DNA from: Octopus vulgaris
Lineage: Eukaryota
Length of the DNA: 64,000 nucleotides
NCBI GenBank assembly: GCA_951406725.2
Contig: OX597826.1
Span: 34,534,001-34,598,000, forward strand
Direction: 5' to 3'
Below the pieces are notes generated by a model. That model was given only the letters and a program-made list of their open reading frames with translations, was not told the DNA's origin and did not search any database. Below, one piece after another: positions 9,638 through 12,556 of the stretch. How positions within the stretch are numbered: position 1 is the stretch's first letter; every line of letters begins with the position of its first letter. The position numbers and the translations under genes are program-made.

Positions 9638-10911
9638 ATAATACCTTCTAAATCAAGTTGAAAATCGAGAATTTCGAACAGAAATATTAGTCAATACGAT
9701 ATACCTAGTACTTGATGAGCAGTTTTGATTGTAGGCACTGAAGAGCTAAAATGTGAAGCTGAAGATGGCGGGATTTGAACGCAGACCATAAAGAGCCTGA
9801 ACGGATACTGAAATTACTGTTTTGCAGCGCTCTAACGCTTCTGTCTGCCCATTGTCATTTAAACATACATTAAATAAGACATCGTTGACTGGCCACTTTA
9901 TTGAAAACGTATTTCCTCTTAATGAAATTGTTTAATGCTTTTAACTACTTGCAGTGCGCAAGTGTTTCCATTCAGAATTATCTTTACATGTGTTATATGT
10001 TGTTCAATCATGTATCCCTGGGTGATAATGGTACACTAGATACCTGATATTATTCTATTCAGTGCCTCACTGCGATATTATTTAACACCAGCTATAAATC
10101 ATAACATTTCTCTAAATATCATAGGAAAGATACGTTTGAGCGGAAGGTTTGTTTCTGTCTAGAATGAAATCATAATTGTATAGCAAACGTGCCGACACTT
10201 ATCACAAAGTTTGTTTGATGTTAACGTTTGTCGATCGGTATTAATGTCAAATATTAAGCACGGCTTTGAAGTAACATGTCTTATGCTTCTCAGTCAATTG
10301 ACAGATTGACCAAACGGTAATAAACCGGAAATATGCACTACTGACAGAGAACTGCTATGTCATTGGTTCCCTGTCCTTCTCTTTTAAGTAATGTTTTTTT
10401 TTAATTGCTAGGAAATTTAGAGTAAATAAAAAAAAATAGTCCACTTTGTGCATCAGGTAAAAATGGTTTGAAGCCTATTTACATATGTTGGTTATAAATA
10501 TAAATAATTTAAACTAGAGATTGCGTAAACTTATAGGCTGCAATTTATGCATGCAACGTTAGATAGAATACCTCGAGGTATGTGCTTCGAATCAATGCGT
10601 TCTGAGTTCAAAGCACGCAAATATCATCATTGTCTTTCATTCACTCAGAGTCGTTAAAAAATACCGGACAGGAGTAATGGTTTCCTTGAGGGGTTCGATA
10701 AACGCATTTCAGCTTTGGATGAAATGCATTGTGATATCTATTCCCACATCTTGTACTCTGGCAATACACACACACATACACACAAACAACCCACACACCC
10801 TCAAATATATATGTATGCATAAGTATTATATTTATACTTACATATATACACATACATACACACAGATACATATACATGTGTATGCATATGTATTATATTT
10901 ACACATACATA

Positions 10912-11072
10912 GACGTAGAAGTGGCTGTGTGATAAATAGCTTGCTTCAGAATCACATGGTTCCGGGTTCAGTCTCGCTGCGTCGCACTTTAGAGAAGTAC
11001 CTTCTACTATAACCTCGGGCCGACCAAAGCCTTGTGAGTTGATATGGTAGATAGAACTGAAAGAAACCCGTC

Positions 11073-11073
<1 letters not shown>
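10912..11073 (+). mobile_element. SINE family B, 5' half (tRNA-derived head); its TA tract hosts the 360-bp array
   Basis: gtggctgtgtgataa...ggttcagtc...ctactataacctcgggccgaccaaagccttgtgagt...gaaagaaacccgtcg(TA)n, homologous to 12563-12726. Confidence 0.85.
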
Positions 11074-11112
<39 letters not shown>

Positions 11113-11273
11113 AGGGACTAAAGCCATCTGAATATGGCTAGGGACAGGGCAGGGTGGTGGGGGTGTTACTGTTGCATTTAGCCCCAGGCGAACATCGACG
11201 TCACCAGAAAGGCTCGACACCGTCACGGTGCCCTTAACCTGCAAAGGGAGGTAATTCCCCGATGAAGCGGAAA

Positions 11274-11323
11274 CCACACACGGACCATGGTTTCAAGGTG
11301 TATTGCCTATCGTCGGCGTGTGG
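11274..11323 (-). ncRNA. Type I hammerhead ribozyme, variant core (copy 1)
   Basis: Minus strand reads CCACACG-CCGACGA-U-AGG-CAAUACA-CCU-U-GAAAC-CAUG-GUC/CGUGUGUGG. Stem I CACACG:CGUGUG, stem II AGG:CCU, palindromic stem III ACCAUGGU. Predicted GUC cleavage between 11283 and 11282. U4 is replaced by C. Confidence 0.75.
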
Positions 11324-11633
11324 TAGGCTTCCGCTTCCTCGACGAACTCTCACTCTGCAGGATATTCATATATAGATTTTCAAGCAAAATACATTTGCTG
11401 ATTTCGAAAATCTGTTCGAAAGCAATAATAATTCTCTAAAAGAGATATAGACAGTAACTGCTCGATAACATAAGGGACTAAAGCCATCTGAATATGGCTA
11501 GGGACAGGGCAGGGTGGTGGGGGTGTTACTGTTGCATTTAGCCCCAGGCGAACATCGACGTCACCAGAAAGTCGCGACACCGTCACGGTGCCCTTAACCT
11601 GCAAAGGGAGGTAATTCCCCGATGAAGCGGAAA

Positions 11634-11683
11634 CCACACACGGACCATGGTTTCAAGGTGTATTGCCTATCGTCGGCGTGTGG
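11634..11683 (-). ncRNA. Type I hammerhead ribozyme, variant core (copy 2)
   Basis: Identical to copy 1, 360 bp away. Predicted cleavage between 11643 and 11642. Confidence 0.75.
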
Positions 11684-11865
11684 TAGGCTTCCGCTTCCTC
11701 GACGAACTCTCACTCTGCAGGATATTCATATATAGATTTTCAAGCAAAATACATTTGCTGATTTCGAAAATCTGTTCGAAAGCAATAATAATTCTCTAAA
11801 AGAGATATAGACAGTAACTGCTCGATAACATAAGGGACTAAAGCCATCTGAATATGGCTAGGGAC

Positions 11866-11900
11866 AGGCAATACACCTTGAAACCATGGTCCGTGTGTGG
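11866..11900 (+). ncRNA. Truncated hammerhead (copy 3), core 5' half removed by the inversion junction
   Basis: AGGCAATACACCTTGAAACCATGGTC/CGTGTGTGG is present. CCGACGA and the 5' strand of stem I are absent. Confidence 0.65.
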
Positions 11901-12210
11901 TTTCCGCTTCATCGGGGAATTACCTCCCTTTGCAGGTTAAGGGCACCGTGACGGTGTCGAGCCTTTCTGGTGACGTCGATGTTCGCCTGGGGCTAAATGC
12001 AACAGTAACACCCCCACCACCCTGCCCTGTCCCTAGCCATATTCAGATGGCTTTAGTCCCTTATGTTATCGAGCAGTTACTGTCTATATCTCTTTTAGAG
12101 AATTATTATTGCTTTCGAACAGATTTTCGAAATCAGCAAATGTATTTTGCTTGAAAATCTATATATGAATATCCTGCAGAGTGAGAGTTCGTCGAGGAAG
12201 CGGAAGCCTA

Positions 12211-12260
12211 CCACACGCCGACAATAGGCAATACACCTTGAAACCATGGTCCGTGTGTGG
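12211..12260 (+). ncRNA. Type I hammerhead (copy 4) with G8A substitution, probably impaired
   Basis: CCACACG-CCGACAA-TAGGCAATACACCTT-GAAAC-CATG-GTC/CGTGTGTGG. Predicted site after 12251. Confidence 0.65.
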
Positions 12261-12471
12261 TTCCCGCTTCATCGGGGAATTACCTCCCTTTGCATGATAA
12301 GGACACCGTGACGGTGTCGAGCCTTTCTGGTGACGTCGATGTTCGCCTGGGGCTAAATGCAACAGTAACACCCCCACCACCCTGCCCTGTCCCTAGCCAT
12401 ATTCAGATGGCTTTAGTCCCTTATGTTATCGAGCAGTTACTGTCTATATCTCTTTTAGAGAATTATTATTG

Positions 12472-12556
<85 letters not shown>

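Follow-up and report, generated by a model that had tools for sequence, protein, structure and literature searches.

Paired inverted insertions of a 360-bp retrozyme-like repeat in Octopus vulgaris and a probable Penelope-type route of two-ended priming

The inverted insertion and its hammerhead-like motifs

We analyzed a 64,000-nucleotide stretch of Octopus vulgaris DNA (the window; contig OX597826.1 of assembly GCA_951406725.2, positions 34,534,001 to 34,598,000) in which two opposed arms, both built from tandem copies of one 360-bp unit, lie between two (TA)n tracts (Table 1). The unit at 11110-11469 served as the reference, and unit coordinates are numbered from 11110. The whole insertion is composed of this unit, and an open reading frame for reverse transcriptase (RT) plus GIY-YIG is absent from it. 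An earlier note on this DNA had described the layout from the letters, and its description was borne out in each respect. The hammerhead-like motif is carried by the minus strand of the left arm and the plus strand of the right, pointing both sense strands outward to the TA tracts; the arms meet in an exact 3-nt overlap (AGG) at which unit 39 abuts unit 199; each arm is longer than one unit and includes predicted cut sites; and the outer ends lie away from those sites, at unit 356 on the left and unit 312 on the right, compared to a predicted cut at unit 174. The left end, which has no tail, corresponds to site A of the family described below, and the right end to site B. The outer ends and flanks of the two arms are unlike each other and the junction, running from unit 39 to 199, is non-palindromic. 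Taken on its own, a 3-nt junction overlap is weak evidence, with 5% expected by chance. The 5' half of a SINE-like repeat, presumably of an octopus type, precedes the insertion at window 10901-11073 with its 3' half absent, and a second SINE-like copy, 80% alike, begins at 12552 directly past the right TA tract.

Table 1. Features of the inverted insertion (window coordinates)
Feature	Position	Strand	Remark
Left (TA)n target tract	11074..11104	none	
Left arm (A arm)	11105..11868	-	764 bp, 2.1 units; sense strand leftward
Type I hammerhead-like motif, CCGACGA core (U4C)	11277..11322	-	predicted cut after 11283
Second motif copy in left arm	11637..11682	-	predicted cut after 11643
Inversion junction	11866..11868	none	AGG microhomology, unit 39/unit 199
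Right arm (B arm)	11866..12473	+	608 bp, 1.7 units; sense strand rightward
Motif broken within stem II at the junction	11866..11897	+	predicted cut site after 11891 kept
Motif with G8 changed to A (CCGACAA)	12212..12257	+	predicted cut after 12251
44-nt tail between sites A and B	12430..12473	+	at the B arm end only
Right (TA)n target tract	12474..12546	none	

The motif comprises stem I (CCACACG/CGTGTG) and the core CCGACGA...GAAAC CATG GTC in the outward-pointing strand of both arms, and all four predicted cut sites fall at unit 174. A Rfam scan at the gathering and E-value thresholds returned no ribozyme family here, only TA-driven noise, and the motif was called by pattern plus homology with an older sister family in the same genome, being collinear with the CUGAUGA hammerhead of that family. 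The alignment of the two had 90% of its cells paired and two two-sided changes, which was not above the shuffle control. The motif departs from a standard hammerhead in its U4C core and in an A-U pair replacing G10.1-C11.1, and the minimum free energy fold is a rod, not a hammerhead. Animal type I motifs typically have a short palindromic helix III like that of the motif here (PMC4209133). HDV-like and twister readings were dropped by eye, their required pairings being missing. Neither of the two motifs in the right arm is intact (0/2), one being truncated by the junction and the other, with its G8 to A change, likely inactive. Pattern matches of the hammerhead-like kind were also observed outside the insertion, on the minus strand at window 16828 and 40732. 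Another hammerhead-like repeat with a CCGACGA core recurs in the flanks of loci L223, L233 and L239, which shows that the U4C variant occurs beyond the 360-bp family.

A young family with two fixed outer ends

The insertion belongs to a non-coding 360-base repeat present in hundreds of young copies. A genome-wide search with the whole unit (2.8 Gb, 227 contigs) gave 677 first-look candidates, 40 of which were scored, and the whole-unit matches among those listed were 97-100% identical. We fetched 139 stretches that together held 141 insertions, 39 of them found by the whole-unit search and 109 (seven shared) by exact end patterns, the latter sampling contigs C1, C2 and part of C3. The parsing gave 108 two-armed and 31 one-armed insertions and two that were parsed as three pieces, counts that include known miscounts (L117 wrongly classed as one-armed, L126 wrongly as having an odd end). 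The sense strands pointed outward in all 108 two-armed insertions and in the opposite direction in none, and arrays reached about 11 units per arm. Nested insertions in TA tracts were observed at L042, L071 and L145. The sister family, which is older and more abundant (L217:7076-7317, L221-L239 and L210:1953-2149), is about 61% like the unit and 80% like the 44-nt tail and has the same B end; its hammerhead lies near the 5' end, and many of its copies begin just before it.

The earlier note had expected that scattered, circularly permuted ends would support a circular template and that fixed ends would argue against it. Two fixed sites were found instead. In the 39 insertions from the whole-unit search, a set unselected for its ends, 64 of 67 outer ends fell at unit 354-356 (site A) or unit 312-316 (site B), 44 nt apart, the intervening segment being equivalent to the 'tail' of Penelope elements. 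Exact-pattern counts over the genome gave 522 A ends and 213 B ends next to TA, and zero for the reversed-pattern controls. The argument for a circle from permuted ends falls with this result; the circle itself survives, since a Penelope RT begins internally at defined sites (PMC11167929) and fixed ends are thus compatible with a circular template. The two sites were also strictly paired. Both ends could be classed in 98 two-armed copies, of which 97 were A+B, one was AA and none was BB, and the tail was borne by exactly one arm in 97 of the 98; the other 10 of the 108 had an odd end or ran off a fetched stretch, the latter being excluded from the pair counts. The unselected set agreed (A+B in 23 of 24, p 1.5e-6 compared to independent choice). 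One-armed copies ended at A in 21 cases and at B in 10, suggesting that either site is able to act alone. All four copies of the 357C haplotype (4/4) carried T at unit 357 of the A end, indicating that the first bases there, likely the first two, derive from the target and that copying starts near unit 358.

Pure TA on both sides was lacking at 17 two-armed sites, and in 8 of these target duplications of 12-13 bp surrounded the whole pair of arms. TA tracts flanked both sides of 88 of 105 two-armed copies, a count partly selected by the TA-bearing search patterns, with TA flanks present in the unselected set too. The view that two cDNAs had been joined by microhomology gained support from the family, in which 25 of 83 insert-free junctions overlapped by at least 3 nt, compared to 5% expected; short inserts were present at 11 of 94 junctions. 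Abutment of the L1 type, in which the inner end of one arm lies beside the start of the other, occurred within 10 nt in 13 of 94 cases, with 10.6 expected, and was absent at the studied locus (unit 39 versus 312, and 199 versus 356).

The inner stops of the two arms correlated (rho 0.68, n=77) and coincided within 1 nt in 7 of 77 copies, where 0.6 was expected; L060, L103 and L158, which have three-piece junctions, were excluded from the stop statistics. Relative to the first cut site, both arms stopped before it in 22 copies and beyond it in 42, and 13 copies were discordant. This site was passed by 107 of 174 arms with no pile-up of stops, and the stop rate per 30 nt was 0.12-0.18 in the two bins before the first cut and 0.03-0.06 just after. 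Run-off at the hammerhead cut was rejected as the source of the inner ends, with unit 166-174 containing 4 of 106 late stops compared to an expected 2.65. The 11 of 149 late arms that stopped at unit 296-306 (scan-corrected p 0.57) gave no support to a fixed start of transcription or a stall there. Stops of A arms were enriched just before site B, with 12 of 67 at unit 296-315 (scan-corrected p 0.03), compared to 4 of 62 for B arms (A versus B, p 0.06; all arms pooled, p 0.3). Neither arm was contained in the other in 35 of 97 copies, the studied locus among them. The longer-reaching arm was the tail-less one in 50 copies and the tailed one in 20, an excess to which the 44-nt head start contributes.

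Haplotype comparison relied on 26 marker sites outside CpG. At these sites the two arms of a copy had identical outer units in 70 of 84 cases, compared to 7.7% among random loci, and both arms shared 13 of the 110 variants private to a locus. Adjacent units were marker-identical in 160 of 179 pairs, although more than 10 haplotypes exist, and 12 private variants occupied every covering unit, figures that represent part of the family. Uncleaved multimers from uniform parent arrays predict the same uniformity as circles. A marker change along the arm was found in 13 of 94 multi-unit arms, and arrays whose units switch haplotype along one arm were observed at L048, L054 and L083. The outer unit of the studied right arm carries 122T,128T, known from five other loci, and its inner unit carries 122C,128A, known from three others and carried also by the left arm. 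In the same-tail register the two arms differ at 8 of 564 sites, two linked family markers included, and in the register with B one unit downstream at only 1 of 204. Given the 8 differences, same-tail copying of the same molecule holds at this locus only if a switch, an offset or later conversion is allowed. Reading of a single monomer circle with no switch does not account for the studied copy; a mixed multimer, a switch of template or subsequent gene conversion does. The earlier suggestion that RT went around a circle more than once is unsupported at this locus, the outer haplotype of the right arm differing from that of its inner unit and of the left arm. That circles served as template somewhere in the 360-bp family we rate at slightly less than an even chance.

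A probable route of insertion and its alternatives

We propose, with a probability of roughly 0.68, that a Penelope-like RT/endonuclease inserted the retrozyme by extending both ends of the cut TA tract, one from each site. The earlier note had held that both target ends primed internally on the RNA, and the polarity (108 of 108), the 12-13-bp duplications, the haplotypes and the stops make this likely; priming was likely at fixed Penelope-type start sites and not by chance annealing. The enzyme, probably a dimer, would bind the tail of a multi-unit or circular RNA, and both (TA)n strands would be nicked 12-13 nt apart. Priming would take place near unit 358 (A) for one 3' end and at unit 312-316 (B) for its partner, with no need for pairing. 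Both RTs would then copy towards the 5' end of the RNA, mostly on the same molecule and reading through the hammerhead sites, and the two cDNA ends would join via 0-8 nt of microhomology. For the studied locus, a start of the B arm one unit farther downstream, on a mixed multimer, is likely, or else a template switch.

Several steps of this route have been described in vitro for Penelope (PMC11167929): the anole protein nicks and extends both strands, its RT initiates internally at two sites, one at either boundary of the tail, with homology not required, and the protein, a predicted dimer, functions without ribozyme cleavage, uncleaved RNA being its main substrate. No difference between the strands in start site was observed there, so the strict A+B pairing is left unexplained by that work. 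A more specific version of the two-ended route, in which the enzyme dimer sits on the tail of one circle and cuts (TA)n with a 12-13-nt stagger, with a leading RT from A and a trailing RT from B, both rolling, is tentative and in our estimation doubtful. If it were true, two-ended priming would be the normal Penelope insertion route, and the scars would provide direct evidence from the genome that Penelope machinery copies the retrozyme circles of animals.

The arms might instead arise by self-priming, a cDNA (or antisense RNA) being copied into a hairpin that the endonuclease resolves at site A, which we consider unlikely. Later deletions at the centre of the palindrome would then make the arms unequal, and long palindromes tend to lose their centres. 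Published work proposes self-priming for the head-to-head repeats of Penelope (PMC3846280) and endonuclease resolution for the tail (PMC8557442). Fold-back of this kind accounts for the private variants in both arms, and a shared haplotype and matched stops (7 of 77 coinciding) are predicted by it as well as by two-ended priming. However, neither arm lies inside the other in 35 of 97 copies, a pattern that a central deletion could mimic, and if the tailed arm were the one copied, the opposite result or an equal reach would be expected, yet the tail-less arm reaches further (50 versus 20); the fold-back reading is weakened by these containment and reach counts. The two studied arms also differ in register at two linked family markers, 21 one-armed copies begin at A, and both ends of the tail are RT starts in vitro (PMC11167929).

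It is quite improbable that reverse transcription rolling on one monomeric circle, after priming at chance internal positions, made all the units of the insertion. The identity of adjacent units (160 of 179), the 12 private variants in every covering unit and the passage of 107 of 174 arms beyond the first cut site with no pile-up agree with rolling, as do the A-arm stops before site B (12 of 67, p 0.03; pooled p 0.3) and the retrozyme circles documented in other animals (PMC7229834). Against it, the start sites are fixed and not permuted, the studied right arm switches haplotype along with 13 of 94 multi-unit arms showing a marker change, and uncleaved multimers from uniform arrays give equal uniformity, uncleaved RNA being the main substrate (PMC11167929). 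Two separate insertions in one TA tract, or later recombination, would suit the nested insertions in TA tracts (L042, L071, L145) and the difference of the studied arms at two linked markers; this we regard as very unlikely, given a reversed polarity in 0 of 108 copies, the strict A+B pairing, the absence of TA between the arms, the shared haplotypes and the one duplication flanking the whole pair. An assembly artefact by fold-back is unlikely in the extreme. The junction at 11866-11868 was unbridged among the 32 of 1,915 pieces listed from the contigs of four public runs, which would suit an artefact, although contigs can prove that a sequence exists but not that it is missing, and the insertion may be peculiar to the individual that was assembled. 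The non-palindromic junction, the unlike outer ends and flanks, the 8 differences between the arms and a layout common to 108 loci, some with target duplications, speak against an artefact. Independent runs, moreover, contain loose ends at both of the fixed sites (11780-11781 in runs X3 and X6; 11824-11825 in X2, X3 and X6), flanked by TA-like sequence, and other same-polarity joints (X1 and X6).

As for Penelope-like enzymes, which the preferred two-ended route would involve, a GIY-YIG search gave 148 matches, 16 of them within a 781-aa open frame. A young Penelope-like family with this frame intact and with TA targets was observed at L200-L215. The frame contains RT and GIY-YIG domains and a Neptune-type Cys linker, and it is overlapped by an upstream frame of up to 479 aa with no Pfam match; the element has 456-bp terminal repeats and a 38-nt tail. 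It has two 3' ends (A and B) of its own, 38 nt apart, and its inverted copies were A+B in 2 of 2. BLAST revealed no similarity of the 781-aa element to the 360-bp unit and a pattern search no hammerhead in it, and the elements in the 50 GIY-YIG loci examined had no similarity to the unit. L217 was considered as an autonomous parent and rejected, its 61% match being a separate sister-family insertion past a TA tract; both 61% matches in the GIY-YIG loci are separate insertions of this family. A second RT plus GIY-YIG family (L217:3320-6477), 46% identical to the 781-aa protein, is flanked by inverted terminal repeats, and copies of it adjoin the insertions at L042 and L071. We also observed one chimera among the 141 insertions (L122:518-1010; contig C2, about 87,784,270-87,784,760). 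It consists of a retrozyme B arm followed by an inverted arm, which passes from retrozyme sequence into 273 nt of the terminal repeat of the 781-aa element, the element part being 98.5% identical and stopping at the A site of that element. The chimera may be a template switch or a nested insertion, and is possibly a lead to the mobiliser, and a lead only.

Comparison with retrozymes, Penelope elements and L1

The 360-bp family resembles the metazoan non-LTR retrozymes (PMC7229834, Cervera and de la Pena 2020), which are likewise non-coding tandem units, of about 170-400 nt, and likewise form dispersed short arrays with larger target duplications. Its tandem non-coding unit falls within the about 150-450 bp of non-LTR retrozymes, and its copies are dispersed and mobile with target duplications. 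Metazoan retrozymes are described with a type I hammerhead per unit, and the motif here is a hammerhead-like U4C variant with predicted cleavage. Retrozymes, their circles and their proposed mobilisation by Penelope elements have been published (PMC7229834; bioRxiv 10.64898/2026.07.22.740005). The link drawn by Li, Clavereau and Pollet 2026 (bioRxiv 10.64898/2026.07.22.740005) is co-occurrence plus pLTR phylogeny, and as far as these sources describe it, the role of Penelope in moving animal retrozymes has so far rested on co-occurrence and phylogeny. Unlike this published evidence, the Penelope link in the 360-bp family is the insertion scar itself. The word 'inverted' is absent from the text of PMC7229834.

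Endonuclease-positive Penelope insertions are described as having partial tandems, an inverted 5'-truncated copy and (TA)n targets (PMC8557442 Fig. 2; PMC3846280), together with a tail that is a 30-40-bp extension, often at one end only and optional (PMC8557442). The formation of such inverted insertions with a one-sided tail is described as undefined (PMC8557442). The 360-bp family has in common with them the partial tandems, the inverted truncated copy, the one-sided tail, the (TA)n targets and two RT starts bounding the tail, and it shows the (TA)n target bias of Neptune and Naiad. It differs in a tail of 44 nt, compared to the 30-40 described, which is optional in the Penelope descriptions and is found here on exactly one arm in 97 of 98 copies. 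Unlike Penelope-like elements it is without an ORF, and unlike the described Penelope insertion units about three quarters of its copies are inverted. Its duplications measure 12-13 bp, compared to 8-10 bp in the descriptions of rotifer Penelope-like elements. The young family yields countable rules, namely one arm per start site, a 12-13-nt stagger, arms mostly of one haplotype and matched stops. These rules favour two-ended priming over the published self-priming and are testable in the existing in vitro system.

Twin priming of L1 was reportedly described by Ostertag and Kazazian in 2001. It is also mentioned in bioRxiv 10.1101/2024.12.14.628481. A literature search, older Penelope reviews and supplements aside, found no paper on a strict one-of-each A+B pairing and no application of twin priming to Penelope elements or retrozymes. 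As in L1 twin priming, two target ends would be extended on one RNA, and the family shows one target duplication, outward-pointing sense strands and junction microhomology. Unlike in L1, both primings are internal at fixed sites, poly(A) is absent, the arms overlap in sequence, and abutment of an inner end with the start of the opposite arm is no commoner than chance allows (13 of 94, 10.6 expected). Retrozymes, inversions and tails are known, and the A+B pairing is the observation that the 360-bp family adds to them.
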